From: Solirubrobacteraceae bacterium
GTDB lineage: Bacteria > Actinomycetota > Thermoleophilia > Solirubrobacterales > Solirubrobacteraceae
Assembly: GCA_034665145.1 (NCBI GenBank)
Contig: JAXDGI010000007.1
Coordinates: 20,356-84,355 of the forward strand
Reading direction: 5' to 3'
DNA length: 64,000 bases
The notes under the pieces were generated by a model that did no database searches, was not told the DNA's origin, and saw only the letters and a program-made list of their open reading frames with translations. Below, piece by piece: positions 1 to 37,809 of the stretch (its first letter is position 1; every line of letters starts with the position of its first letter). The position numbers and the translations under genes were made by a program.

Positions 1-3000
1 GGCGACCGCTCAGGGCCGAGCCGACCTGGCTCTGACCGTCCGCGCTCGGGACCGTGAGGATCGAGATCGCCCCCGGCGTGCTCACCGCCAGGGTGCCGCC
101 GGTCGCCGCCAGCGTCGAACCGGCGATGGTGATCGAGCCTCCGGCGGTGACGGTGACCGGGCCGTTGGCGGACGTCACCGACGAGCTCGCGGATCCGTAT
201 TGGAGGGTGATGGTGCCGGGCGCGGTCACGGTCGTGCCCGCCGCCGACGCGGCGCTTGAGCCGGTGAGGGCGAGGTCGCTGCTGGAGTGCAGGTACGTCG
301 TGCCCTGAGTCGAGCTCGCGTGCGAACCGATCAGGGTGAGGACGCCTCCGGCGGTCACCGACAGGGCCGAGCAGCCGCTCGTCGAGGTGCACCAGGCGTT
401 CTGACCGGCGGCGTCGCTACCGGTCGCGCCGAAGCTCGAGTCTGAGAACACGAGCGCGCCGGGAGAGCTGATCTGCAGCACCGAGTTGGTGACGTTGAAG
501 CCCGAGAAGGTGTCGGTGCCCGTCACCCCGGTGAACAGGATCGCCGTCACCGAGGAGCCGCTGTAGGTGTCGGGGCCGGCCGTGATCGAGAAGCCCGCCG
601 CGGTGCCCGCACCCGAGATCGTGTCTCCGGAGATCGGATCGGTGATGTAGAGCACGTCGGGGCCGCTGCCGCCGGTGATCTGGCTGGAGCCCTGGCCTCG
701 GGTCAGGTAGACCTTGTTGCTGCCGCTGCCCAGGGTGATCGTGCCGGCCGGGCCGGTGATCGTCTCGTTGCCGTTGCCGCCGTGGATCGTGTCTGACGTG
801 TTGCCGCCGAAGATGACGTCGGGGCCGCCGCCGCCGTAGATCGTCACCGCGCCCGTACCCACGTGCTGGATGATGTTCTGACCGGAGCCGCCCTGACCGG
901 AGTCGCTGCCGTACACCGTGCCCGAGCCGGAGCCGGACACGATGATGCTGTTGCTCCCTCCGCCGCCGGCGATCGAGAGGGTGCCGCTGCCGGCGTCGGT
1001 GAACACGTCATTGCCGGCGCTGCCGGTTCCGTAGACGGGGACCTGCACGCTCTTGTCGATGTTGAGCGTCTCCTGGCAGGGCGCGCTGCTCGTGCAGGCC
1101 TGCCCCGACCAGTCCGCGGTCACCGAATGCACGTGCTGGAAGACACTGGTGCGCCCGAACGCGTCCACCTCGATGATCGCGTCGCCGGCCGAGCCGCCGA
1201 TCTGCTTGATCAGGTAGGCGTCGTTGTTGCCGGCGCCACCGATGTTGCGCTGATTTTCCCGCGAGCCGACGTTGAGGTAGAGGTCGGTCGGCCCAGCGTT
1301 GTTGTTCCATGCGTGCGGGTCGCTCTGGGTGCCGGCCAGCCACACCGGCGCGGGCATCTCCAGATAGCCAATCGTGAAGTTCGCGTCAGCGTCGATCGAG
1401 AAGAAGAAGAAGCTGACGGAGATGTGGACGCTCAGCGTGATCGGCACTGATCCGTTGGTCGAGCTGCCCGAGTCGGCCTTGAAGTCGAAACTGAGGCCGA
1501 CGCTGGCCAGCGAGATGCCGAAGGCGTTGACCCCGACACTGGCGCCGCCGCCCAGCTCGAACCGGTAGGCGTCGGCGCTGCCGAGCATGTAGTGCTGCGA
1601 GCTGACGTGGAACCAGAAGTTGCCCGACAGACCAAAGCTGTCAGAGCCGATGGTCATCCCGCCGTTGAGGTCAAGGCTGAAGTTGCCCGAGCTGTCGAGG
1701 GACAGCGACCCGGCGAGGGTGGCGATACCGAAGAAGCTCATGCTCGCGTTGGCCGACAGCGACCATGTATTCGGGCCAGCCACCCCGACCGCGATGGTTA
1801 GGCCGGCGTTGAAGTTGATGACTTTCAACAGCTCGACCTTGCCGGTGAGGCTGAGGTAGAACGAGCTGGGGGCGATGCCGAGCATCGTCTGCCCGCCGGT
1901 GTTGATCTGAAGGGTCCCGCTGGCGTCGATCGTGAACACCGCGGCGTCGGCGGTGGCGTGGACCTGGAGGCTGAGGGCCAGGCCGCCCGAGTAGACCGAC
2001 GCCGCGCCGCTGGCGCTGAAGTTCAGCGGGCCGAGCACGAACGAGAGCTGGAAGGCGATCTGCAGGCCGCCGGGGCCGATCGTGATCATGGCCGAGCCGC
2101 TGGCGGTGGCGAAGCTCCCGAAGCCGATCGTGGCGGTGATGGCCAGCGTGAAGCCCGGCTGGATGGTCACCGGGTTGGAGGTCCCGAACTGCTGGGCGGC
2201 GCCGGTGGTGTTGAGCTGGACCGTGGCCGTGGCCGAGGCGAAGCTGAGCCCGACGCCGCCGCCGAGCGCGCTCACGTCGACTGAGAAGTTGGCCAGCAGC
2301 CCGCGGCTGTCGATCGAGAAGCCGCTGTTGACGATGTTGATGGCGCCCAGCGGACCGAGGTCCATCGCGCCGTTGACGATCAGGCTGATGCCGGGGTTGG
2401 CGCCGGCCAGGCTGAGCGTGAACTGGACGTCGCCGTTGATGGTGATCAGGCTGCCGACCGTCAGGCTGCCGTGCATCTGCAGCAGGAAGCCGGCGGTCGT
2501 GGTGATCGTGGTGTTGACGACCTGCAGGTTGCCCGACCCATCGCGGGCAAAGCCGCCGAAGTTGCCCAGGCTGTCGGTCGTGGTCGCGAAGGTCTGGATC
2601 GTCTTGGCCGTCGTGAACGTGTTGAGCTCGAGCAGGAAGTCACCGTTCAGGTTCACGCCCGGAATCTGGTCCACGGTGAGGGCCAGGTATACGCGGCCGA
2701 CCACACCGGTCTCGGCTGGCGTCGCCCCGAGGAAGACGGTGAGGTTGAGCTGGCCGGCGAGCGCCCCCAGGAAGGAGATCTGCGTGCCGACGGCACCGGT
2801 GATCGACAGCTGCAACCCGCTCGAGCCCGCGGCCGCCTGGATCTGCACGAAGCCGTTGAGCGTGATCGCGCCACCGATGGTGATCTGAGCGTTGATCTGC
2901 GCCGAGACGTAGACCTGGCCGCCGGCCGGGGCGAGCGGGTTGCGCCCGCCGGTCAGCCCGGGAGCGGAGGCGTAGATCGCGATCGTGGTCGGGTCTCCGG

Positions 3001-6000
3001 GGTGCAGCAGGGGCAGGAACGCGCTCGGGATCTGGAACACCTGGTCCTGCAGGGTGGTGTTGAACATCACCGAGACCGTTCCGCTGATGCTGAACAGGCT
3101 GCCCACCCCGGGGATGCCGAGATCGGCGCCCGCGCCGACGGTGAGGTAGCCCGCGACCCCGGGGTTGGTTCCCGGGGTCAGTCCGGTCTGGATGACCAGC
3201 AGGCCCGTGCCCTGGCCGTAGGTGAGCTTGGCCGAGCCCGCGCCGTAGGAGACCGAGGCCGTGACGTAGATGGTCAGGCCGCCCGGGTTGATGCTGAGCA
3301 AAAAGCCGCCGTCCAGGGAGACGAGCGCAGTCGAGGTTCCCGGCGGGGTGATCGAGGCGGCGCCGGCGATCTGGACCAGGAACGAGAGCGGTTGGAGGTT
3401 GAACGTCTGGGTCGCGTTGGACCCGTTGGGGCCCAGGCCGGGCAGGCTCAGGGTGACGTCGTGCTCCTGCTGGGTGAGGTTGATCTGCAGGGTGCCGCTG
3501 CCGTACAGGAAGATCCCGTAGGGCTGCAGGGCCGAGAAGTTGGTGGCCAGCGTCGCCACGCCCCAGATCTGCGGCCCGCTGGCCACCTGATTGCTCATGT
3601 CGAGCTCGAAGAAGCCCGCCGTGGCGCCGACGGTGCCGAGCTTGTAGATGCTCAGCTGGCCGTTGAAGGTGAGCTTGAAGATCTTGTTGACGGGATCGAT
3701 CTCCAGCTTGACGTCGGCCGAGAGCTGCATGAGCGGGGAGCTCGTGAAGCCGGCGGCGTTGAGGATGATCCCGCCCGAGAGCTCGATGAAGAAGCTCTGG
3801 GCCGGGGCGATGACCGCGAAGGACGCGGTCGACGCGGTGCCCCGGTTGCCGGCGCTGTCGGTCCACCCGCCGGCGGCGAAGGTCGCCTTGACCTGACCGG
3901 CGGTGAACGCGCCCGTGTAGAAGAAGCGGAAGGTGTTAGGACCGATCTGCACGACCGGGTAGCTGCCGGTCCCGGCGACCGGGGCGATCGTACCCAGGCC
4001 GGACCCGCTCAGGGTCATCGTCGTCCCGGTCACCGTCGAGGCGTCGACGGTGTGACCGAGCGTCGGGGTCAGGGCGACGTCGACCCAGGTCCCCGAGCTG
4101 TTGATCGTGTACTGCGAGGCGGTCGGGACGTCGCCGGCGGCGGAGGCCGTCCCCGAGAAGTTGCGCCACGTACCCGCGGTGAAGCTAACGGTGAGGCCGC
4201 CGCCACCGGTGTAACCCGAGAAGAAGTAGCGGTACACGTTGCTGGCCGGATTGGTGGCCGCGCCGAGCTGGACCGGAGCGCCGACGAGGACGAGCGTGTC
4301 ACCCGCGGTGTCGGAGATCGTGAGCTGGTTGCCGGCGCCGATCGATGCGGGATCAACCGATTGGCCGCCGGTCGACGGGTAGGTGACGTCGACCCAGATG
4401 CGTCCGTTGAGCGTGACCTCGTTCTGGACGCCGCCGGCCGATGGAGAGGCGAGCGTGCCCGTCGGCGAGGCGACGGTGAACGTCTCGGTGAAAGCCTGGT
4501 TGACGATCCCGGCGCTGTCGGCGAAGGCGCCGGCCAGGAAGGTGACGGTGTAGGTGCCGACGGCGAGCGGGCCACTGAAGCCGTAGCGCCAAGTATTGCC
4601 ATTGCCCTCGCGGGTCGCAGTCCCGCTCAGCGTGACCGGGGTGCCACCCGGACCGCTGATCTGGATCTCGTTGCCCGTGATGGTCGCCGGATCGATGGTG
4701 TTGCCAACCGTCGGGGTGAAGGTGATCTCGATGTAGCCCTGACCGTTGATGACTCCGGCGCCGATCGTGCCGCCCGCCAGGGAAACCACCGTGCTCGTGC
4801 TCGTCGTCGGATCGATGACGGTCTGCGCGAGGTCGGCCGTGGCGCCGCTGACGGTGAAGCTCTGGGTCGTGCCGAGGTTCGGGGCGTGGGGAGGTCCGCG
4901 GGCCGAGGTCGACGTGATCGTGCCGCCATGGAAGGCCACGGTGACCGCCCCGGGGACGAAGCTGCCGGTCAGCAGGTAGCGGTAGATGCCGTTGCCAAGC
5001 GCGATCGGGTTCGAGCCCGAGACGAAGGTGATCGTGCCCAGGCCGATGCCACCGAGGGTGAACAGGCCGGTGCCGGGAGGGTTGTCGAGCGTGCCGCCGG
5101 TCCCCGGGCTGACCTGGACGTCAAGGTAGGTCTGGCCGGCGGGGAAGTCGGCGACCGGATGCGAGACGACGCTGTTGTACGCGGTCGCGCCGGCCGGGGA
5201 GCCGAAGTAGGACACGGCCCGGTTGGTGAAGGTCACCGACAGCGTGCTCGTCGTCGCCCCGCTGGGCATGACGACGTTGACCGGGATCGAGATGACGTTG
5301 CTGCTCCCGACCTGGACCGGCACGCGGGTGGAGTCGACGGTCACCGTCCACCCGTTGGAGGCGGAGATCGTGATGCCGGCCAGGTTGATCGAGCCCGGGT
5401 CGAGCGTGTAGCCGGTGGGGATACCCCCCGTTCCGTTCTGAGGGATCGTGATCTGGATGGTCGGGTTGACGGCGGACACGACCTGGGTGCCGCTCGGGGG
5501 GGTGGTCGTGGTCAGGACCGAGACCGTGACGTTCCCGATCGTGGGCGCGGTCGGGACGTAGTAGGACCAGCTGTTGGGGATGAAGGTCAGGGTCACCGTG
5601 CCCGTCGGGGCGGCAGCGCCGGTGAGCCAGAAGCGGTAGGTCAGCGTCCCCGATCCGCTGGCGACCTGGGTCGGTGCCTGGGCCAGATTGAGGGCGAGCG
5701 TGCCCAGGCCCGAGCCGCCGAGCACGAACTTGGGGCCGCCGCTGGTGATCGAGCTCGGGTTGATCAGGTAGCCGGCGTCGGTCGGCTCGGTGAAGACGAC
5801 GTCGATCCAGTTGCGGTCGTTGAGGACGTTGACGTCGATCGTGCCGCCCTGGCCGGGGTTGAGGATGACCGCGGTCGGGCCCTGGACGGTGAAGGAGCTG
5901 TGGATGGCGCTCGGGTTCGAGGCGCCGGCGGTGGTGTTGCCCGAGGCATCGGTCACATCGGCGTTCTTGATGGCGCCGGCGGCGATCTGGACGGTCACGG

Positions 6001-9000
6001 TGCCGGGCTGGAAGGTGACGCCGGAGCCGAGCAGGTAGCGGAAGGTCCGCGTCCCGGTCATGTCGATCGCGTGGTAGAGCAGGTCGGGGTCGCTGATCCC
6101 GCCCGAGAATGAGGAGGCGCTGAGCACGACGACCTTGGCCAGGTCGGTCACCGTGTAGACGACGTGGCCATTCACCGTCTGGGAGGTGAGCTGGAGACCG
6201 ACGTGGGAGAAGCCGGTGGCGGTGGCCGCCGCGGCGAGCATGTCCGCGGCGTTGCCGTAGTGGGCAGCACCCGGGTTGAACGTCATCACCGTCTCGGTCG
6301 TCGGTCCGTAGCGCCACACCTGGTGGTTGGTCGTATCGAGGACGAGCGGGACCGAGATCGCCCCGGCGGCGAGGGTGATCGTCTCCATCGGGATCGGGCC
6401 CGACAGCGAGATCGTGCCGGTGATGGCGCTGCCGCCGATGGTGATGTGCGCGCTCGAGGCGAAGATCGAGGCGTAGTCGAGGTTGGCTCCGGTGGCGGCC
6501 GTGTAGGTGATGTCGATGTAGTGCTGGCCGCCCGTGGCATCGGTCTGCAGGCCGGGGGCGGCCGCACCCGTGCCGGCCGCGGTCGACGTGTCGGCGACGT
6601 TGACGTCGACTGCGCCGCCATCGGGAGCCGGGGCGCTGACCGTCGCTCCGGGAGCGGTGGTCGCCGCCGCGGGCGACTGCGCGGGAGCCGCGACATCGAA
6701 GGTGACGGGCTGGCCGGAGGAGTTGGCAAAGCCCATCTGCAGCTTGCCGTACAGGGTGAGGAGCTGGACCTGATCGGGAATGTCGGCCAGGAATAGGACG
6801 ACGACCTTGCCGCTGCTCACCTGGGACAGGTCGGCGTAGAGCTTGCCGCTGATCGAGACGTTGTTGTTGGCGAAGTTGAGCTTGCCCTCGATCATGAACT
6901 TGCCGTCGGTGGAGATCATGATCGTCACCTGGCCATTGAACAGCGCCTGCGACGTGTAGATCGAGTAGATCTCGGCCGAGCCGATGATCGTCATCGGCGC
7001 GCTGAAGGCGGCAAAGAAGTTCGCCTGGCCGCCCGTCGCCCGGGCCTGGGCGGCGACCTGCTGCTGAAGGCTGGTCAGCCACTGGCCGGCGCTCAGCTGC
7101 GTGGGCAGCCCGAACTCGGGATTGCGCAGCGCGAAGGGGTCGGTGATCGACGGCAGCGTCTTGAAGAACTCCACCCCGCCGGAGAAGTTGTTGATGGTCA
7201 GGCCGGTGTTGGGATCGAGCAGGATGCCGCCGGGGATCTCGACGTTGACGAACGCCTCCAGCGGGCCGAGCTGGCTGAGGCCGACCCGGAGCGTGAAGCC
7301 GGCCATGCCGCCGATCGAGAAGCCACCCTGCAGGCCCAGGTAGAAGACCCGGTGCGCGACGGTCGTCGTCGTGTCGGACGGATCGATGATGTTGTAGGCG
7401 CTGTCGAGCTTGAGGATTCCCCCGATCAGGCCGCCGTCGAGCTGGCCGCCGAACAGGTCGCCCTTGACGGTGACCCCGAAGGCGTCGATGCCGATGATGG
7501 GGAACTGGCCCTGGAGCAGCAGCGAGGGGTCGATCTGGATGCCCTGGACGGCGCCCGAGACCTCGAGGCCGCCCAGCCCCTGGATCCCGGTGACGCTGGC
7601 CGACAGGGTGAGGATGAAGTGGCCGGGGTCCTGGGAGATGTGGGGCCACTGGATTCCGATGCTGTCGATGCGGACGGGCAGGAAGGAGGGCCACTGGAAG
7701 GAGCTGCCGGTGGCCGAGCCGACGGTGAGGAAGACACCGAAGTTGCTGCCGGCCGAGAAGCTTCCGTCGCCGAGGAAGGCGAAGTTGCGGGCGGTGCCGG
7801 TGATCTCGAGCGTGCCGATCTTGACGTCGGCGCCCACGCTGGAGAAGGAGACGAGCGGATCACTGGCCCCGGCCCCGGTGTTGAGGTTGAAGTTGGTCGC
7901 GTTCAGCGTCAGGAACGAGCCGAGCGTGATCGACATCTGCGCAACGTGGAACTGGAAGGCGGCGACCTGGCCGTTGGCGCCGAAGGTCACGGTCAGGCGC
8001 AGCGCCTCGGTGTTGGGCGTTCCGTCGGTGTTGAGAGCGCCCGGCAGCGCGCTGATCGTGGCCGAGATGGCCTTGCCGGGCAGGAAGGTCGCGCCGCCCG
8101 AGGCGAAGTAGATCGAACCGGCGGTGACCGGGCTCGAGCCCGAGAAGCTCATCGAGAAGTTCTGGACGCCGACCCGGATGTCCTTGAAGGTGAGGATGTT
8201 GCCCAGTGACACGGCGTTGCCGCTGCCGGAGTTGGACAGCGGGTCCCCGGCCGGCGCGGCGACGCCGTAGTCCAGCTCGGCCTGGCCGAGGGTGAACCCG
8301 TTCTGGCGGATGACCAGGCCGGGGATGAGTCCGGAAGCGGTGCTGGTGGCCGACACGCTGTGTCCGGCGTGCGGGTCATAGGGCCGGATCGTGCCGGTGA
8401 GGTTGAAGGCGGGGAAGTTGATCGTGGCGCTGTTGATGACGACGAGCTGCTGGTCGGCGGGACCGGCGGGGTCGTAGGCGATGGCGATGCCCGCGGCCGA
8501 CAGGTTCAAGACGCCGGGCACGGTGGCGGTCAGCGAGGCGACGCGGAGGCTGAACTTGCCGGGCAGGTTGACGCGGAAGTTGCCGCTGAGCAGCCCGAGC
8601 GCGTCGACCTGGATGTCAAACGTGCCGAGGATCCCGGTGAGGTTGACGCTGACCCCGCTGGAGCTCTGCGCACCCGAGGAGCCTCCGAAGTTCAGCCCGG
8701 CCCGGTCGGCGCCCAGGGCGATGGTCAGGTTGAGCATCCCGTCCTTGAAGCCGACGTCGGCGATCGAGATCGTCGGGCCCTGGAGGCTGATCGGCCCGAG
8801 CGCGATCGTCCGCGGGCTGGTGCCGGCGCCGGGGGCCGTGGGCGAGATGGTGAAGGTCTGGATCTGGCCTCGCTGGTTGACGACCGGAGTCACCCCGGTG
8901 CCCTCATTGGTCTGGAAGCTGCCGGGCAGGAAGGTGAGGGTCACGGTCCCGGCGCCGAACAGGCCCGCGGCTGCGTTGCTCGCCGTCTGCAGGAAGTAGC

Positions 9001-12000: not shown

Positions 12001-15000
12001 GCTGGGCCCCGGTCGTGCCCGTGCCGAGGAACAGGCCGACGTTGGTGGCGGCGATCTTGACCACCTTGCGGTCATCAGAGGTGTTCAGCCGCCCATCCGG
12101 GCCGGCGTCGGTGACCGACTGGAAGGAGAACTGCCCGGTGAGCGACTGGCCGAACAGTGTGGCCGTGAACGGCTGGGTGGTGGTGCCCAGCTGGGCCAGC
12201 AGCGAGCCGGGCGCGAAGGCAACGTCGATGGGAATGCCGGTGCCGAAGCTGATCTCGCTGGGCAGACCGTTGAAGGCGACCGTAGCGGCGACGTGGCCGG
12301 TCACGCCGCTGGGGGAGACCGTGAGGTCGCCGGTCCCCTGGGTGATGGCCAGGCCGGCGCTCGCCGAACCAAGCGTGATGGCCAGGTGGGCGAAGGTCAG
12401 GTGGACGGTGCGCGAGGCGTCGCGGCTGAAGGTCACGTCACCGGTCACCGATTGGCCGAGGACGCTCAAGGTCACGCCGGTGCCGCTCACCTTGACGTAG
12501 CTGTTCGTGCCCAGGGTGGTGTCGATGGCCACGCTCAGGCCGGCGGTCAGGTTGACCCCCGGCACGGTGACGGCGATCTGGCCGCTGAGTGAACCGGCCA
12601 GGCCCTTGCCCGTACCGGCGGCGCCGCCGGCGCCGGTGATCGTGAAGCTGCCCTGGCCCTGCGTGAGGGTGACGAAGTTGGTGGCGCCGTTGCCCAGCGC
12701 GAAAGTGACGTTGGCCGCGGTGAGGGTGTCGGCCGTCGCCGTATGGGCGAAGGCGAAATCACCGGTCAGGGTCTGCCCGAGAACGCTGAGCGTCACCCCG
12801 GTTCCCGACAGCTCGGTGTAGGGACCGGTCGGTAGGTCAAGCGACACCGACTGGCCACCGGCCGACAGTGACTCCTTGACCGGGGCGCCGGTCTGGTTGA
12901 CCGCGAAGGCGAAGGTTCCGTCCAGGGTCACCCCGGGGATCAGGTTGTGAAGATTGACAGTGCCCGACAGCTGGCCGGCGATGCCCGTGGGCAGGATGAC
13001 GAGCAGGCCCTGGCCGCCGGAGAGGACGGTCCCGATGGCGCTGCCAAAGCTGACGCTCACGCCGGTGGCGGCGAGGGCAATCTGGGTCTGGCCGGTCGAG
13101 CTGGTGATCTGCTGGATCGCGAAGGAGCCGCTGAGGGTGACCGCGTTGGCAATCGTCAGTGAGATAGCGGAGCCCGAGATCCCGAAGTACGGCCCGCCGG
13201 GGACGGTGCTGCCGTCACCGAGCAGCTGTGGCGCCGAGGTCGTGTTGATGGCGAGCGTCAGGGTGCCGGTCAGCGCGACCGGTCCGAGGTTCAGGCCCGA
13301 GGAGCTCGTGCTCACCGCAAGGTGGCCGGCGATCCCGCCGTTGGTGACGAGCAGCGAGCCCGAACTGATGGTGATGGGCGAGAGGCCGGTCAGCGTCACC
13401 TCGGCGTTGGTGACGGTGATCGACACGACCGAGCTGCCGTTGGCCTGGCTCTGGGAGAAGGCGAAGCTGCCGGTGAGCGTCTGGTCGAGGAAGGTGAGGC
13501 TGAGCGGGCTGCCGGTGACGGCCAGGTACCGGCCGGGTTCGTTGAGCGTCACGCTCTGGCCGCCCACGGTCATGGTCGTGTTGACGGCCTGGTCGGACGT
13601 GTTGAGCTCGAGACCGAGCGTTCCGGTCAGGGTGAGGTTCGGGATCGAGACGGTGACGCTGGCGGTCAGGGCGCCGACGAGCCCGGCAGAACCGCTGCCG
13701 AGGGCGCCGTAGGCGAGAGTCCCGGCCCCGCCGCTCAGAGTGAGCACCGGCGTGCTGGCGTTGCCGAGCACCATCGCGAGGTTTGAGACCGTCACCGCGA
13801 CGATGTCGGCGCCGCCGTGGATTCCGCGCTGGAAGGTGAAGTTCCCGTTCAGCGTCTGACCGCCGATGGCCAGCGCCACCCCGGTGCCCTGGACGAGGAG
13901 GTACGGGCCGGCGGGAACGTTGATGCTGACGCTCGACCCGCCGACCGTGAATTGCTGGTTGACCGCGGTCGCGGTGCTGTTGACGGCGAGCGTGAAGGTT
14001 CCGCTCACCATCGTCCCGAGCCCGGTCGGATCGACGGTCGCGGTGAGCGTGCCGGCGATCCCGCCGGCGCTGATGAGCAGCGCGCCGCTGGCCTGCGAGA
14101 CGCTCAGCTGGCTGCCCGAGGGCCCGATCGTCATGTGGCCGTTGGCCAGGACCACCTCGACCAGCTTCTGCGGGGTCGCCCCGGGTGCCGCCTGCGGACT
14201 GAGCGGGATCGTCACCTGTGAGAAGGAGAAGTCGCCCTGCAGGGACTGACTCCCGATCGTCAGCGTGGCCCCGGTGGCCGTGACCCGGAACAGGCCGGCG
14301 GCGAGCGAATCGGTGCCGACGGTCTGGGCGGCCGTCGTCGTGTTGATGGCCAGGGTGGCGGCGATCCCCGAGCTGAACAGGCCGGTTGCCGCGGCGGTGA
14401 CCTGGGTGCTGAGCTCGCCGTAGACGCCGGCCGCGCCGAAGGCGAGCTGGCCCGAGGTGATCGCCACCGAGACCCCGGAGCTGCCGCTGCCCAGCGCCAG
14501 GATCAGGGCGCTGCCCGAGGGGACGCTCGTGCCGAGCAGGATCTCGAGGTGGGCGGGAACGGAGCCGGCGGCGTCGACGTAATGGAAGCCGATCGCCCCG
14601 GTCAGAGACACGTCGCCGAAGGCGAGGGTCAGATTAGTCCCGTCGATGATCGACGTCGTGTCGGCGATCCCGAACTGCGGGGTGCCCGTGTTGTTGAACG
14701 ACACTGTCGCGGTGCCCGAGAGCTGGAGGCCCGGCACGCCGACAACCTGAACCGTGCCTGTGGCCGAAAGCGCGTACTTCCCGCTGGATGGATTGGTGAA
14801 CTGGTAGGGCTGGGTGAGCGTGAGGTAGACGCCGTGCGCGGTCGGGTTGATCGTGGCGCCGCTGATGAAGGCCGGGCCCTGGCCGAGGAAGACGATCATC
14901 GTGCCCGACACGCTGTGCGTCCCGGAGCTCGCGTCGAAGTTGCCCTCGATCTCGACGACGTTGCCGATGTTGATGATCCCCGAGCCGGCGACGTCCATGA

Positions 15001-24000: not shown

Positions 24001-27000
24001 GACCGCTGGCCTGCAGCGTGTAGGAGTGGTCGGGCTCGACGACGAGGCCAAGGCCCGCGCCGCTGACGGTGAGCTGCGTCCCCGTGCTCGGACCGATCGC
24101 GACGAGCACGCCGGTGGCCCCGATGAGCAACTCTGTCGCCCCCGACGGCCCCGTCCCCGGACTCCTGGCCACGGCGAAGTTGCCGGCCAGCGAGAACCCG
24201 CCGACGGCGAGCGTCACGCCGGTGCCTGTGAGCGCGGCGGCCCCGGCCACGACCGGCGCCGTCGTCGCCCCGGCTTCAGGCAGGGTCACGTCAGAGCCCG
24301 TCGTGTTCAGCTCGGCGCGGAACGCGCCGGTGAAGCTCAGGTCGGAAACGTTGACGACGGTGGCGTCCCCCTCAGCGCGCATGGCGAACGTGCCGTTGGG
24401 CTCGAGCACGAAATGGGCGAAGGCGCCCGAGCCGCCGAGTTGGAGACCAACGTCCTGGGCCGAGCTGGACCCGCGCTGGCCGAGGAACAGAGACGCGCCC
24501 GTCACGTCGATCGTGGTCAGCTGGCTGGCCAGGTCGCGCGTGAAGGTGAAGGCCCCGGTCACATCGCCGAGTGGAGTCTGGAGCGTGGGCGAGCCCGTGG
24601 CCGTGAGGGTCGACACGGGGACGTCGGCGGACGGGGTCGTGAAGTGAGCGATCTGGCTGCTGCTTGTGTTGATGCTGATGCTGAGCGTGAGCGCGCCGTT
24701 CAAGCTCAGGGGCGCGAGCAGAGCGGGCAGCGCGCCCGAGACCGTGCCGGTCGCGGCGAACGTGCCATCGGCGTTGATCTGCGCGGCGGCCGAGACGGAG
24801 GTGCCGGTGATCGAAACGGCGATCGCCGAGCCCGAGCGCGAGAAGCTCAGCGCGCCGCTGAGATCGAGGAAGGCGGGGAGCTCGAGCGCCCCGTTGCCGG
24901 CGATCGAGAAGGACGGCGTGGCCGTGGTGGTGTCAAAGGCGACGGCGAGCGACGCGACGAGCGTGAGGCCCGGGACGCCCACCAGCCGGGCCGCCCCGGT
25001 CACCGAGCCGCTGGCGCCTGTTGTTCCCGTGGTGAGCGTCCCCACCGCGCCGGTCACCGTCACGGCGGCTGAGCCGGCGGCGATCTGGGCGCTCGCCCCG
25101 GTGGCCGCGACGGTGAAGGTCGCGCCCGAGACGGTGAGCGCGAACTGGCCGTTGAGGGCGCCCACGGCGCCCAGCGTGAGGGCGGCGGTGCCGCTCAGCG
25201 ACGTCCACGGGCCGGTCACTCCGGTGGGCTGGGCCATGGCCAGAACGACGGTTCCGGCCCCGGTGTCGATCGTCACCGGCGCGGCCGAGAGATCGCCGAG
25301 ACCGTCGTAGGCGGCGTGCCATCCGGTCCCGGTCAACGTGAGTGAGCCGGCGCCCGCGACGGCCACGTCACCGGTGGCAAGAACGGCGAATGTGGGACTC
25401 CCGCCCGCGTCGGGAGTGCGGGCGACCAGACCGAGGCTGGCGTTGCTCAGCGATGCCGTCGGGCCGCTGGTCCCGGCGGTGAGGGTCGCGCTGACGCCCG
25501 TCGCGCCGAGCGTGGTCTGCATCGTCGTGCCGTTGTCGGAGTAGGTGACCTTCAGGCTCGAAGCGCTGAGCGTCACGAAGTTGCGGATGCTGATGCTCGG
25601 CGAGGCCAGCGTGACGGTCAGGGTGCCGGCGGTCGCCGCCTGGCCGGCCAGCGTGTAGGTGCCGGTGACCGTCCCGAAGGTTGCGTTGAACGGTCCGCTC
25701 GTTCCGGTGTCGATACCCCCGCCGCTCGAGCTGATGGTCACCGTGCCGGCGAACCGGGTGTTGGCCCCGGTGCCGGTGATGCTGATGTTCGAGAAGCTCA
25801 GGGAGGGAGCGCCGAGCTCGAGCACCCCGCCGATCGTGAGGTCGCTGGGCGCGGTGATCGTCGTCGTTCCCGTGAGGGCGCCCGACACGTACTGGTTGAG
25901 CTCGGTCTGGACGAAGGCGAGCAGGTCGGAGAGCGGGCTGCTCGCGGTGAAGTAGGTGGAGAAATGCGGCAGCCCGGCGCTGACGATGCCGGTGCTCGGG
26001 TTATAGGCCGAGGTGATGGCGACGGGTGCGCCGGCCGGCGGGAGGTAGTAGATGCTGGGCGAGGCGGCGCCCTGGGCGACCGTGATGGACAGCTGAGGAG
26101 CGACCGCGAACTGCTCGATGAGGGCGCCGGTCACGGTGTCGACCGCGGTGAGGTCGTAGGCGGAGGACAGCGCGTTGAGCCCGGCCACGGAGACGGTGGA
26201 GACGGTCACACTGACCTCGGCGTCGTGCGGCAGGCTGCCGGGCGCGAAGGTCAGGGTGGCGTTGCCCGCACTGATCGAGCCGCCTTGCGCGGCCAGGATC
26301 AGAACAGGTCCATAGGTGACGGGGGGTCCTCGGGCGCCCAGCGTTCCCGAGTATGTGGCGCTCACACCTTGCAAGGCGCCGGCTGACGAGGTGGCTCCGA
26401 CGCCCGGTGGCGTCGCCGCGGTGGCCTGGGTCAGGTCACCGGCGCCCGCGGACGGGGCGGCCCCGGCGGCGCTGGGCACGATCCCGGCAACGGTGCTGGG
26501 AGCCGGCGCGCCGCTGCCCGCGGTGGGGCTGCCGGACACGGCGACGTTGGCGGCGGCGAGCAGGGCCGGGTCGGCGCCGCTGCCGTCAAGCGCGGTGGAG
26601 CCAGCGCCGGCGTTGCCGGTGGCCGCGCCGACAGCGCTCAGTCCGGCGGTGACGAACGTGCCGCCGGTGGTCGCGGCGGCGAGCTCGATGGCCGGCGCGC
26701 TGAGGGCGCCGGTCATGGCCGGAGCCGCGGTGGGCGCTTCGGTGGCGGCGATGGTGGCGACGGCGGCGCTGCTCTGCACGCCGGCGGTACCGCTGTAGGC
26801 GATGTTCGATGTGCCCGCGGGCTCCGCCGTCGAGCCGCCCGAGGCCCCCGAGCCGCTGCCGGTGATGGTGGCCGGCCGCGGAGTCACGCTCGCCGACGAC
26901 GAGCCGGCCGAGTTCGAGCTGTCCGTGCCGTTCGACCCGCCGGTGGTGCTCGAGCCGCTGCTGTCAGCGGGCGGGGCGCTCGGCGATTGTCCGCCGCCGC

Positions 27001-27307
27001 CCGTGGGCGACGAGCCCGAGCCCGACGGACTCGACGGACTCGACGGACTCGACGGCGAGGAGCCGGGCGGCACGGTGGCCACCTGCGGCGCGACGGTCGC
27101 GCTCGCCCCGCTGCTGTCGGCGCTGGTCGAGGCGCCGCTCTGGATCTGCTGATCGGTCGGGGAGGGCGGTGCGCTGATTTGCGAGGAGCTCGGGTCAGCC
27201 GGCGCGGCGGTACTCGTCGGACTGCTGGTGGAGACCGGAGTGCTGTCCGAGCTGGGGGTGGCCGCCGGTGTGTCGGTGGCGGCGGGCGTCGGGGCCGGGG
27301 TGGGGGT
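1..27307 (-). CDS. Giant repetitive surface/secreted protein (adhesin-like), at least 9,102 codons, 3' end outside the window
   Basis: The minus frame with codons ending at positions 2 mod 3 translates to coherent G/T/S/A/V-rich beta-type protein wherever I translated it. The ORF track has no minus-strand ORF terminating in this frame between 1 and 27307, which implies no internal stop. The long plus-strand ORFs in register with it are antisense shadows. Confidence 0.95.
645..1040 (-). repeat. RTX/hemolysin-type Ca-binding-like Gly-rich nonapeptide repeats
   Basis: GSAGNDVF, GGGGSNSI, GGSGQNII, YGGGGPDVIFGGNTSDTIHGGNGNETITG, GSGSNKVYL, TGGSGPDVLYI. Confidence 0.75.
3860..9600 (-). repeat. 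About 9 Ig-like repeats with (Y/W)(I/L/V)D(V/I)x(F/Y) and (Y/W/F)R(Y/F) motifs, in two blocks (9600-8870 and 6530-3860)
   Basis: DHIDIAY ~9550, GYLDISY ~9190, HYIDITY ~6515, NWIDVVF ~5805, TYLDVQV ~5125, GYIEITF ~4730, IWVDVTY ~4395, TWVDVAL ~4085, each followed by a YRY-like motif. The Ig fold is an inference. Confidence 0.7.
9900..25500 (-). repeat. Array of about 30-35 protein-level beta-rich repeats of ~115-125 aa, interrupted by the FG-GAP block
   Basis: Recurring landmarks LPAGP(Y/F)LR and GQTL(T/S)G(D/N)F; examples near 19540, 19170, 18810, 18470 and 18110 give a period of ~340-370 nt. The count is approximate. Confidence 0.85.
15365..16810 (-). repeat. FG-GAP/VCBS beta-propeller repeats (six clear, one degenerate)
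   Basis: DVNGDGFPD 16783, DINHDGLLD 16600, DLNGDGNSD 16222, DVNGDHLTD 16087, DVNGDGLPD 15736, DVNGDGLPD 15562, degenerate LTGSSQPD ~15395; most are followed by an (L/V)(Y/W)LN-type strand. Confidence 0.9.
25949..26290 (-). other. ZU5-like domain ending in an HFS autoproteolysis motif
   Basis: GGSISAGNATLTFAPGSLPHDAEVSVT...AYDLTAVD...IYYLPP...GIVSAGLPHFSTYF; HFS codons at 25966-25958. Confidence 0.75.
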
Positions 27308-28165
27308 CTAAGCCGTGCTGGGGGCCGGGGTCGGGGCCTCGGGCGGGGTGCCCCCGGGCACGGGCGCCGGCGCGGGTGACGGGCTGGAGGCCGAGCTCGG
27401 CGTGCTCGCCGGCTCGGCGCTCGAGGCGGCCGGGGCGAGGTGGGCGCGACTCAGGTGGCTGGTCGAGTTGGTCGCACTGGTCACGGTGGTGCCGGGGCCG
27501 CCGTTGACGGTCACAGTGGGAACCGGCGTGCCCGACGGCGCCGGCGCGCCCGCGCTCGGGGCGGGCACGACAACCGGCGGGGGAGGGGTCGGCAGTGGCG
27601 GCAGTGGCTGCGTGTTGACGACGATCGGCGCGGCCGAGAGGGCGTGAGCAAGTCCGCCGATCACACCCGAGGCGGTCGTCGGAGCGGTGCTCGTGGGGGC
27701 AGAAGTGAGCGAGTACGAGCTCCGCTGGACGGGGATCTGCTGGCGGGTCACCCGCCGTGCGCCGGTCTGGCGGACGAGGTGGCGGGTTCCGGCTGACGGG
27801 GTCAGGCGCCGGCTGGCCGATGCCGGGCGGCTCGCGCTCCCCGTCCCGCCGGCGCCTGCGCCGGCGCCGGCCTGGCTTGGACCAGACCGCCTCCGCGCGG
27901 CGTGTGCGGCCTTCGGCACGGCGAGCACGGGGAAGCGCACCGCCGGAAGCACGACGTTCGGCAGCGGGGTGACGACGTCGGGCGGGTTCAGAGCCGCCTT
28001 GGCCGAGGCGGTGGCCAGAGCCGCATACGGGAGGCAGAGGGCGAGCAGGCCAACGACCCCGAACCAGAAACGGTTGCGGCGGGAGGCGAGCACGCCGAAG
28101 CTCGGCGTACGGGCGGCGCCGGAGGTGGTCGCTCCGGCGTATGCGGGCATTCGAAGAATGTTCAT
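27308..28165 (-). CDS. Signal-peptide-bearing Pro/Ser/Thr/Ala-rich N-terminal segment, in frame with the giant ORF and ended by TAG at 27310-27308
   Basis: RRNR-FWFGVVGLLALCLPYAALA-TASAKA resembles a Sec signal or N-terminal anchor. In-frame ATGs occur at 28189, 28165 and 28150, so the start is uncertain. The low-complexity linker continues seamlessly past the TAG. Confidence 0.75.
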   Translation of the reverse strand: MNILRMPAYAGATTSGAARTPSFGVLASRRNRFWFGVVGLLALCLPYAALATASAKAALNPPDVVTPLPNVVLPAVRFPVLAVPKAAHAARRRSGPSQAGAGAGAGGTGSASRPASASRRLTPSAGTRHLVRQTGARRVTRQQIPVQRSSYSLTSAPTSTAPTTASGVIGGLAHALSAAPIVVNTQPLPPLPTPPPPVVVPAPSAGAPAPSGTPVPTVTVNGGPGTTVTSATNSTSHLSRAHLAPAASSAEPASTPSSASSPSPAPAPVPGGTPPEAPTPAPSTA

Positions 28166-28287
28166 TACGGCATCGTCGCCAGCCGGCATGGTGCCGGTCC
28201 AGGCGGCCCTACGGCGAGGCTTGGGCCCCCAAGCTTTGCCCCAACTGTCGAGAGGACGGTCCCTGCGCCCTCGCGACGACCCCGGCA

Positions 28288-28316
28288 AAGTGACAGAGCG
28301 CGTACCCCCCTGTCAA
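28288..28316 (-). promoter_or_regulatory. Putative sigma70-type promoter of the giant gene, with an overlapping inverted repeat
   Basis: Perfect TTGACA at 28316-28311; 18-nt spacer; CACTTT preceded by TG-N (extended -10-like). TGACAG-N13-CTGTCA palindrome spans 28315-28291. Confidence 0.45.
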
Positions 28317-28520
28317 TCCTTTAAGCGTGTCTAAACGAATGTTCTATTCGGTCCGGTCCCGGGACCGTCTCGCCTGCGTGGCTCGTCGCCGCCCCGCGCC
28401 CCTGCCGCCCGCGCCCACCGGAGCTCGCGAGCTCGAGGCCTATCCGGGCTCTACGCTGACCTCAACCTCTACCTTAGCCTCAGCTCGCGGTCCGGGCCAG
28501 CCAGCTTGCCGGGTCGGAGG

Positions 28521-28724
28521 TCAGGACCAGGGGGGCAGAGGCGCGGAGAAGCGCATGACACCCTCGTGCAGCGCGGCCTCATGCCACGGGTCGCGACGGA
28601 CCGGGGGCGGTGCCGGGGTGGGCGCGGTCTCGCGCATGAACTGTTCGAGGGCCGCCACCACGGCCGCAGCCTCCTCCGGGGAGGCGTCGGGAGCAATGAG
28701 CGCAAGCCGGGGCCGTCGGTTCAT
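28521..28724 (-). CDS. Acyl-CoA carboxylase epsilon subunit-like protein
   Basis: 67 aa, DASPEEAAAVVAALEQF...DPWHEAAL matches the actinobacterial epsilon-subunit pattern; a carboxyltransferase gene is nearby on the same strand. Confidence 0.75.
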   Translation of the reverse strand: MNRRPRLALIAPDASPEEAAAVVAALEQFMRETAPTPAPPPVRRDPWHEAALHEGVMRFSAPLPPWS

Positions 28725-28752
28725 GCCGGAGCGAGGGTACAGTGCGCGGCCG

Positions 28753-29700
28753 ATGCCGTCACTACCGGTTCTCGATCACGATGCCGTCCTCGCCGCGGTG
28801 TCCCCCGCCGCCGCCATCGCCGAGGTGCGGGAGGCCTTCCTGCGCTTTCGCGCCGGCGACTGGGTGATGCCGGCCAAGGTCTACTTGCCCAGCCCTCCCC
28901 ACGGTGACTTTCGCGCCATGCCGGCCCGCGGCGACGGCTTGGCCCTGCTCAAGTGGATCACCTCGTTCCCGGACAATCCGCGGCGCGGCTTGCTCACCGT
29001 CAACGGGATCATCTGCCTCTCCGATGCCGAGACCGGCCTGCCGCTCATGCTGCTCGACGCGCGCGCGGTCACGGCGCTGCGCACCGGCGCGGTGGCCGCC
29101 GTGGCCAGCGCCGCGCTGGCGGCCGCGGCGTCCGGCTCGGTGGGGCTGATCGGCTGCGGACTGCACGGCGCCTGGGCGGCTCGCTGTCTGGCCGAGGCGG
29201 GCTTCGGACCTGGGACGTGCGCGGACCCCGACGCGAACGCGGCGCGGCGCGTGGCCGATGAGCTGGGCTGGTCGGTCGGGACCGCGGCTGAGGCCCTGGC
29301 CGCCGATGTCGTTTGCTGCGTGACCCCGGGCAGCACCCCGCTGTTTCATTCTGGCGATCTGCGCCCGGGCCAGCACCTCAACATGCTCGGCGCCGATGGG
29401 CCCGGCAAGGCGGAGGCGACACCAGAGGCCGTCGCCGCCTGCCGCCTGTTCTGCGACGAATGGGAGCAGGCCTCACACGGGGGCGAGCTGACCGGAGCGA
29501 TCGAGGCCGGGCTCGTCCAGCGCGCTGATGTCGGCGAGCTCGGGGCGGTCCTGAGCGGCCAGGCCCCGGGGCGTGACGGTCCGACCGAGACGACGCTGTT
29601 CGACTCCACGGGTCTGGCCATCCAGGATCTGGCCGTCGCCGCGGCGGCCTACCGGGCCTGGCGCGATGGGGCAACGCGGGCCCAGACAGTAACGCTCTAG
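28753..29700 (+). CDS. Ornithine cyclodeaminase / mu-crystallin family protein
   Basis: DFRAMPA, TALRTGA, Rossmann IGCGLHG, FDSTGLAIQDLA. Confidence 0.9.
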   Translation: MPSLPVLDHDAVLAAVSPAAAIAEVREAFLRFRAGDWVMPAKVYLPSPPHGDFRAMPARGDGLALLKWITSFPDNPRRGLLTVNGIICLSDAETGLPLMLLDARAVTALRTGAVAAVASAALAAAASGSVGLIGCGLHGAWAARCLAEAGFGPGTCADPDANAARRVADELGWSVGTAAEALAADVVCCVTPGSTPLFHSGDLRPGQHLNMLGADGPGKAEATPEAVAACRLFCDEWEQASHGGELTGAIEAGLVQRADVGELGAVLSGQAPGRDGPTETTLFDSTGLAIQDLAVAAAAYRAWRDGATRAQTVTL

Positions 29701-35824: not shown

Positions 35825-36454
35825 ATGCAGGTCAGGGTTCGTCTGTTCGCCGCGCTGCGCGAACGCGCCGGAGCCGGGGAGTTGGAGCTCGAGCTTCCCC
35901 ACGGCGCGCTGGTCCGTGACGCGCTGCGCCAGGTGAGCGCGCTGACCCAGGGGGTTCCGGTGGTCATGGCGGTCAACCACGAGTACGCCGGCGAGGACCG
36001 GGTGCTCGCGCCCGGGGACGAGCTGGCCCTGATCCCGCCCGTTTCCGGCGGCGCGGTGGGCGTCATCCACGTGCGGATCACTGAACAGGCGTTGCGGCTT
36101 GACCCGCTGCTTGACCGGGTGCGTGATTCCCGGGCCGGCGCGGTGGTCACGTTTCTCGGAGTGACCCGTGAGGTGGCGGCGCTCGAATACGAGGCCTACA
36201 CCGAGATGGCCTCAGCCAAGCTGAGCGAGATCGTCGCCGCCGCCGTCGAGCGCCACGGGCTCTGCGCCGCCGCCGTCGAACACCGGATCGGGACCGTGGC
36301 ACTGTCCGAGCCCTCGGTGGCCATTGCCGTGTCCGCCCCGCACCGCGCCCAGGCCTTTGCCGGCGGTCGGGAGATCATCGATGAGATCAAGGTTCAGGTC
36401 CCGATCTGGAAGAAGGAGGAGGGCGAGTGGGTGGACGGCGTGAGTCCGAGCTGA
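35825..36454 (+). CDS. moaX: Fused molybdopterin synthase MoaD-MoaE (MoaX-like)
   Basis: VRLFAALRE...ALIPPVSGG (MoaD) followed by GAVVTFLG, LEYEAY, HRIG, VPIWKKE (MoaE). Confidence 0.9.
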   Translation: MQVRVRLFAALRERAGAGELELELPHGALVRDALRQVSALTQGVPVVMAVNHEYAGEDRVLAPGDELALIPPVSGGAVGVIHVRITEQALRLDPLLDRVRDSRAGAVVTFLGVTREVAALEYEAYTEMASAKLSEIVAAAVERHGLCAAAVEHRIGTVALSEPSVAIAVSAPHRAQAFAGGREIIDEIKVQVPIWKKEEGEWVDGVSPS

Positions 36455-37809
36455 GGGGCCTGCCGGCTGTCCATGAGCTCGCCGACCAGCTGGATGCGCC
36501 CCACGTCCTAGCCGTGGCGGCGGCGCGCCGTGCGATCGCCGAGCGGCGCTGTGCGCTCTTGGCCGACGCGGAGGCAGGTCACGGCCAGGCCGAGGCGGAG
36601 ACGGGGGACAAACTGGCCGACCGGGCGCGAACCCTGTTGACCGCGCTGGCGTCGCCCTCCCTGCAGCGGGTCATCAACGCCACTGGCGTGCTCATGCACA
36701 CCAATTTGGGTCGCGCGCCACTCAGCGACAGCGCCCAGGCGGCGGTGGCGCGCGTGGCCAGTGGCTACAGCAATCTCGAGTTCGATCTCGAGGCCGGCGA
36801 GCGGGGGTCCCGGCACGACCACGTCGACGGCCTCTTGCGCGAGCTGACCGGGGCCGAGGCGGCGATGGTGGTCAACAACGGCGCCGGCGCCGTGCTGCTG
36901 GCCGCAGCCGCGCTGGCTGGCCCAGGCATGGCGATCGTCATTTCCCGCGGCCAGCAGGTCGAGATCGGCGGCGGTTTCCGCATCCCCGACGTGATCGCCC
37001 AATCCCGCTCGGAGATGCTTGAGGTCGGCACCACCAACCGCACCCATCGGCGCGATTACGAGCGCGCCCTGCGCGATCCGCCGATTCCCGTCGGCGCCAT
37101 CCTGCGCGTGCACCAATCCAACTTCCGCACCCTCGGCTATGTCCACGATGTCACGATCGAGGCGCTGTGCGAGTTGGACGCACCCGTCATCGACGACATC
37201 GGCTCCGGCGCTCTGGCCGGCGCAGACCGGATCCCGGCCCTCGCCGATGAGCCTGATCTGGGGCGCTCGGTGCGGGCCGGAGCGGCGCTGGTCACCTGCT
37301 CGGGCGACAAGCTGCTCGGTGGCCCCCAGGCCGGCCTCCTGGTCGGGAGCAGCACCGCGGTGGCCGCCGCGCGCCAGCACCCGCTGGCCCGGGCGCTGCG
37401 CATCGACAAGCTCTCGCTGGCCGCGCTCGAGGCCACGCTGATGCTGTACCGCGACCCGGATCGAGCGATACGCGAGATTCCCGCCCTACGGATGCTCGCC
37501 ACCGAGGAGGCGGTCCTGGCACAGCGCGCACGGCGGCTGTGCGAGGGCATCGGCCCGCCCGCCGAACTGGTGCGCACCGTTTCACGCCCGGGTGGCGGAG
37601 CGCTGGCCCTCACCGAGCTCGAGGGCCCGGCGGTCACGCTGGGGAGCGACCTCGATCCGGTCCGTGTGGCCTCGGTCCTGCATCAGGCCCATCCCCCGGT
37701 GATCGCCCGCATCCACGACGGGCGGCTTCTCTTTGACCCCCGCACGCTCACTGACGCCGACGTCGAGCCGGTGGTGCAAGCCGTGCGGGCCGCCCTGCCC
37801 GCGCTATGA
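36427..37809 (+). CDS. selA: L-seryl-tRNA(Sec) selenium transferase
   Basis: VINATGVLMHTNLGRAP, YSNLEFDL, VEIGGGFRIPD, EVGTTNRT, SGDKLLGGPQAG (PLP lysine), RALRIDK. Confidence 0.95.
   Translation: MGGRRESELRGLPAVHELADQLDAPHVLAVAAARRAIAERRCALLADAEAGHGQAEAETGDKLADRARTLLTALASPSLQRVINATGVLMHTNLGRAPLSDSAQAAVARVASGYSNLEFDLEAGERGSRHDHVDGLLRELTGAEAAMVVNNGAGAVLLAAAALAGPGMAIVISRGQQVEIGGGFRIPDVIAQSRSEMLEVGTTNRTHRRDYERALRDPPIPVGAILRVHQSNFRTLGYVHDVTIEALCELDAPVIDDIGSGALAGADRIPALADEPDLGRSVRAGAALVTCSGDKLLGGPQAGLLVGSSTAVAAARQHPLARALRIDKLSLAALEATLMLYRDPDRAIREIPALRMLATEEAVLAQRARRLCEGIGPPAELVRTVSRPGGGALALTELEGPAVTLGSDLDPVRVASVLHQAHPPVIARIHDGRLLFDPRTLTDADVEPVVQAVRAALPAL

Follow-up and report, generated by a model that had tools for sequence, protein, structure and literature searches.

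A single in-frame amber codon interrupts what appears, from its reading frame and its relatives, to be one gene of 11,459 codons in a genome of the Solirubrobacteraceae, and this stop is probably a base-call or assembly error. The window, i.e., the whole stretch of 64,000 nucleotides that was analyzed, corresponds to positions 20356-84355 of contig C7 (JAXDGI010000007.1), in a bin of 4.4 Mb and 299 contigs. Positions 27310-27308 of its minus strand read TAG in the context ...PTPAPSTA-stop-TPTPAPTPAATD... (with longer flanks, ...PEAPTPAPSTA-stop-TPTPAPTPAATDTPAATP...). This is codon 286 of the 11,459.

The frame is open for 334 codons on the 5' side of the TAG, back to a TGA at 28315, and for 11,173 codons on its 3' side, down to a TGA at C7:14143. 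The gene thus ends 6.2 kb past the left edge of the window. Counted from the ATG at 28165, which aligns with the MNNFR and MNVKS starts of the orthologues L001 and L002 (see below), it comprises 285 codons, the TAG, and 11,173 further codons, i.e., 34.4 kb; the 28 kb given for it in an earlier note on this DNA was too short, as the gene extends beyond what the window shows. The product predicted by the gene caller (P0001, 293 aa) starts at 28189, eight codons earlier than this ATG. The N-terminal 285 codons (27311-28165, minus strand) hold a conserved module and the start of a low-complexity linker rich in Pro, Thr, Ala, and Ser (26347-27610, minus strand). The linker spans around 420 residues between the module and a structured region, is hypervariable in the alignment of the orthologues, and has the TAG inside it. 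The giant body (1-27307, minus strand), delimited by its reading frame and domain matches, has 9,102 of its 11,173 codons inside the window. The earlier note had placed the TAG in a continuous Pro/Thr/Ala linker, had seen no signal peptide 3' of it, and had given 27082 and 26716 as the first GTG and ATG. All of these descriptions hold: there is no hydrophobic signal-like stretch in the sequence 3' of the stop, and none of the starts has a convincing Shine-Dalgarno sequence. The first in-frame GTG (27080-27082, minus strand), 76 codons 3' of the TAG, is unsupported as an independent start. The genomic neighbors are housekeeping genes, namely a divergent ornithine cyclodeaminase, a carboxyltransferase, a methylmalonyl-CoA mutase, MoaE/ThiS, and SelA.

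In the N-terminal part, an Arg-rich stretch precedes a hydrophobic helix of 23 residues (SRRNRFWFGVVGLLALCLPYAALATASA). The SRRNR motif and the helix (FWFGVVGLLALCLPYAALATASA, 28001-28084, minus strand) constitute a presumed signal peptide or N-terminal membrane anchor, a role that fits both the sequence and its conservation. The module covers 27800-28165 (minus strand) in the window, 4216-4590 in L001, and 4282-4650 in L002, and 32 representative proteins in public data share it, with the consensus MxxxxMPAYAG...[ST]RRxRFWFG(V/I)xGLLAL.LPY...A(S/A)xKA...RFPVLAVPK. Residues R29, F35, P46, and Y47 are invariant in an alignment of 18 family members, and the module has no match in Pfam or NCBIfam. 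The twin-arginine-like motif directly before the helix is odd, given that the protein is far too large for Tat export. Those family members that could be checked either are fragments at contig ends or continue into body sequence. A homologue of the 285-residue piece that stands free at similar size was not found; the sole match is the 293-aa product called in the window itself.

The body is composed, in this order, of a structured region, internal repeats, an FG-GAP propeller (E = 7.8e-36), RTX nonapeptide repeats (E = 2.6e-12), and a basic tail. The repeats, over residues ~1,500-6,300, are diverged and beta-rich, and the RTX repeats lie at the C-terminus, outside the window. The tail that follows them consists of ~55 residues dominated by Lys, Pro, and His (PKPKPKKHKPKPKKHKAKPKKHK..., PKPKKHK-type) and is encoded at C7 ~14144-14330 on the minus strand, ~6.0-6.2 kb left of the window start. 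Its binding partner may be the cell wall or a polyanion, and neither an LPXTG motif nor a hydrophobic anchor was found at the C-terminus. A Pfam match to TcdB_toxin_midN (28.9 bits) overlaps the FG-GAP repeats and covers no separate stretch, so we took it for cross-matching between repeats and not for kinship with toxins. Just 3' of the linker, the body has a ...GLPHFSTYF motif (25949-26290, minus strand), which reads VLPHFSTYV in the relative L003.

The product would be a megadalton secreted or surface-tethered repeat protein of ~11,459 residues, whose export and anchoring are predicted from the sequence. It combines the features of giant secreted repeat adhesins, i.e., an N-terminal signal or anchor (with export predicted), repeat arrays, and FG-GAP and RTX domains. 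It resembles the giant RTX adhesins (LapA, SiiE, MpIBP) and the Gram-positive Ebh and Embp in its megadalton size, its diverged beta-rich repeat arrays, the Ca-binding RTX near the C-terminus, the FG-GAP propeller, and the low-complexity spacer at the cell-proximal end. In contrast to these proteins, its host is a soil actinobacterium of the Solirubrobacterales, its N-terminal module matches neither Pfam nor NCBIfam families, and it ends in a Lys/Pro/His tail. Among the neighbors checked, up to window position 37809, type I secretion genes were not seen.

To compare the gene with its relatives, we used a fragment of the body as bait and retrieved two orthologous loci, L001 and L002, both in Solirubrobacterales MAGs. 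The nearest relatives that we found are MAGs labelled Solirubrobacterales and Solirubrobacteraceae. The body is 80% identical in L001 (on a 2.5-Mb contig) and 68% identical in L002, while the first ~750 residues are 62% and 51% identical, respectively. In both loci, the N-terminal module, the linker, and the body are encoded by a single unbroken ORF (L001 4216-13701, L002 4225-11235), which runs off the retrieved locus. There are thus relatives with an intact ORF collinear to both pieces, and this collinearity excludes the chance juxtaposition of two ORFs. The earlier note had proposed to compare orthologues for a sense codon or a conserved TAG. Both orthologues have a continuous frame with sense codons throughout and no TAG at the homologous position. 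Judged by this comparison, the stop is a private feature of the assembly analyzed here. The dN/dS values computed against L001 are 0.22-0.26 for the body, 0.33 for the N-terminal module, and ~0.5 for the linker, which indicates that both halves are real coding sequences under long-term constraint.

In several other loci (L003, L004, L007, L008, and L009), the module is called as a short separate protein, in each case for a mundane reason. The N-terminal module of L004 is cut off by the end of the contig. In L003, which is 39% identical, the module and a body of at least 2,198 aa differ by a -1 frame, and the switch occurs within 10 nt holding a CCCC run (L003 1160-1185). This break is probably a long-read homopolymer error; other contigs of the same assembly are full of frame breaks typical of such errors (L006, which has a split carboxyltransferase). 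L007 and L008 have several frame breaks each. L009, a 1,178-nt MEGAHIT contig, had looked like a relative assembled from short reads and broken in the linker, and we discarded it as a palindromic chimera: its positions 282-1176 encode the N-terminal module on both strands, an inverted-repeat artefact of assembly. Finally, the syntenic regions L005 4001-7601 and L008 2778-5613 carry only the module, the linker, and the first body motif (GTLGARGPP...) before unrelated genes begin. These remnants, of 899+303 aa or multiply broken, adjoin the carboxyltransferase (L005) or the ornithine cyclodeaminase (L008); the giant gene seems to have undergone deletion or decay at these sites. The breaks in the relatives differ in kind and occupy non-homologous positions, which suggests a linker prone to errors and decay rather than a conserved recoding site.

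The reading that we favor starts from one gene, in which the N-terminal signal or anchor module, the Pro/Thr/Ala linker, and the giant body would be encoded in a single frame. Short-read coverage would collapse in a stretch of 80-86% GC, the assembler would bridge the gap on minimal read support, and a wrong consensus base would give the TAG. We infer that the base itself is wrong; the organism would then make the intact protein, and the stop would have no biological role. The loss of Illumina coverage in such GC-rich sequence is established. Here, the local GC content is 80-86% at 27250-27450. Only 3% of the 34.4-kb gene falls in windows with a GC content of 82% or more, and one of these (27245-27462) contains the sole lesion of the gene.

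To assess the read support of the site, we compared the region with the Logan contigs of ten soil runs (X1-X10). The sequence of the window is present in soil metagenome runs, the best being X1 with 0.83 of the sampled words. The X1 contigs show zero mismatches over 26900-27196 and 27317-27700 and end exactly at the edges of a gap, leaving 27197-27316 without contig support. The wider gaps of X2-X4 include this stretch, with contigs resuming or breaking at 27333 (X2), 27345 (X4), and 27443 (X3). Contigs of X5 and X6 are absent from 27170-27370, and what X8-X10 show on 27230-27560 is limited to short unrelated pieces. One contig of 272 nt, in X7, crosses the site of the TAG. Over 27371-27560, no mismatch was reported for it; the adjoining piece with the TAG, 27291-27370, contains two differences. 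As positions were listed only for differences away from contig ends, these two would sit near 27291. Logan drops the 31-mers that are seen once per run (PMC12424806). Together with the gaps in the contigs, this means that the words carrying the TAG were seen at most once per run in at least nine runs. The lesion is thus located in minimally read-supported sequence, as judged from both contig gaps and GC content.

Other searches gave no independent copy of the junction. The 293-aa product has none in the protein collection, where its cluster has one member from one contig. Read-through queries of 120 aa and 585 aa spanning the junction had no match in the search for homologous proteins, and no same-species copy was found in metagenome contigs with a pattern carrying NNN at the TAG codon or with a protein scan using the N-terminal module. 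We also tried to estimate an error rate from pairs of coding-like ORFs in the same frame split by one stop across the genome, and set this count aside as too unspecific (96 hits, mostly ordinary neighbors).

An error is favored by the single-ORF orthologues, by the lack of a free-standing homologue of the N-terminal piece, by the contig gap at the very site of the lesion, by the two X7 differences in the piece with the TAG, by the use of TAG as an ordinary stop in this genome (see below), by the intact state of all 11,173 codons on the 3' side of the TAG, and by the position of the sole lesion in extreme-GC sequence, which amounts to 3% of the gene and is where errors concentrate. Some observations speak against it. 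The rest of the gap translates to normal linker sequence with the frame kept, and many assemblers require at least two supporting reads, which a multi-sample co-assembly could supply; the TAG would then be real. In addition, few codons of the gap are one step away from a stop: only 2 of the 360 substitutions possible in the gap would create one, against 1.7% for the gene. A stop-creating error within the gap is therefore improbable in itself, and the same rarity counts against a true nonsense mutation there. Our locus resembles the known short-read consensus errors at GC-extreme stretches in that the lesion is private, in 80-86% GC, at a place where the contigs of at least nine runs are interrupted and the flanking sequence matches without differences. 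It differs from them in that frame and linker composition are kept across the gap and that the sense allele is known from orthologues alone.

The main rival, which we regard as clearly less probable, is a real nonsense mutation that the sampled population acquired very recently. The gene would then yield a membrane or secreted stub of 285 residues, and the body, having neither start nor signal, would not be made or not be exported. It would be a fresh pseudogene, or a segregating loss-of-function allele that saves the cost of a ~1.1-MDa protein. The stop does stand in the deposited consensus, and assemblers usually want more than one read. The locus also decays in relatives, as the remnants in L005 and L008 illustrate. 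All 11,173 codons on the 3' side of the TAG are intact, so the stop, if real, must be very young, which fits the absence of a second lesion: a dead gene would remain without one with P = 0.02 at 0.001 neutral substitutions per site, an estimate that counts 1,690 nonsense-capable substitutions and assumes indels at 0.1 per substitution. On the other hand, a real mutation as the sole lesion in 34.4 kb would have to coincide with the 3% of extreme-GC sequence where the contigs of at least nine runs break. Moreover, 31-mers with the TAG were not seen twice in any of these runs, and the 293-aa product occurs in no independent assembly.

A precedent comes from Staphylococcus aureus: in strains Mu50 and N315, a mutation has divided the 33-kb ebh gene into ebhA and ebhB (PMC3868527). 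The two cases share a giant surface-protein gene (~33 kb in ebh) that is one ORF in most relatives and carries one point lesion. The lesion of ebh, however, is a frameshift and has been confirmed in the finished genomes of cultured strains, whereas ours is a nonsense codon known from the consensus of a low-coverage metagenome bin alone. If the stop were real, it would represent an ordinary case, i.e., a giant adhesin gene just after its inactivation.

Two further readings keep the TAG as a functional element, and we consider both very improbable. In the first, the stop would be leaky: a near-cognate tRNA would allow a little full-length protein next to much short product, and the TAG would throttle expression. 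Basal readthrough of UAG exists in bacteria, the frame stays open throughout on the 3' side of the TAG, and whichever residue was inserted in the linker would be tolerated. However, the stop is not conserved, both orthologues having a sense codon. TAG terminates 342 of the 1,140 long coding-like ORFs (~30%; coding-like by GC3), in other words it is a common terminator. ARAGORN identified 54 tRNAs, two tRNA-Sec, and one tmRNA, and none of the 54 tRNAs of this incomplete genome of 299 contigs has a CUA anticodon. Furthermore, a segment of 136 nt around the stop and 3' of it is predicted to be no more stable than shuffled sequences (minimum free energy of -40.2 kcal/mol against a mean of -38.3, z = -0.58). 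The locus has in common with the readthrough of Q-beta A1 and retroviral gag-pol, and with UAG codons for pyrrolysine, an in-frame stop between parts of one frame and a tolerant linker. It departs from them in the lack of conservation of the stop, of a stimulatory structure, and of a dedicated tRNA among those found, and in the frequency of TAG as terminator. Hence, of the three origins put forward in the earlier note, sequencing (or assembly) error and recent nonsense mutation survive, while leaky readthrough finds no support: the stop is absent in the orthologues, is ordinary in this genome, and has neither a matching tRNA nor a notable structure.

In the second of these readings, which we hold to be about as improbable, the amber allele is real and kept in the population, and either readthrough or reversion between TAG and a sense codon sets the amount of the ~1.1-MDa surface protein. 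If true, the cells would have an inexpensive means to turn production on and off, or to dim it, located just past the export signal in a linker that tolerates mutations.

Least probable of all is a division into two real genes, one for a small N-terminal membrane protein and one for a giant protein that starts independently at the GTG at 27082 or 27073 or at the ATG at 26716: these in-frame starts exist, the GTG at 27073 with a weak AGGTGG before it, but no signal peptide follows the TAG, promoter-like or terminator-like sites were not found in 26600-28900, the candidate starts lie in the hypervariable linker that the orthologues read through as one ORF, and the small product lacks a free-standing homologue.

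For annotation, this means that the 293-aa orphan and the signal-less giant next to it should be treated as one gene of ~11,459 codons, with the stop flagged as unverified, as a possible sequencing error or recent nonsense mutation, and given no biological interpretation. There is also a more general trap, since the Pro/Thr/Ala linkers of high-GC Actinobacteria break giant genes in assemblies, through loss of coverage with short reads and through homopolymer indels with long reads (as in L003). The biology is ordinary.

The window also encodes SelA (36427-37809, plus strand), and the two tRNA-Sec genes of the bin are of the UCA type. Together, SelA and these tRNAs make it probable that the organism produces selenoproteins, and an in-frame TGA elsewhere in its genome may in some cases be a Sec codon.
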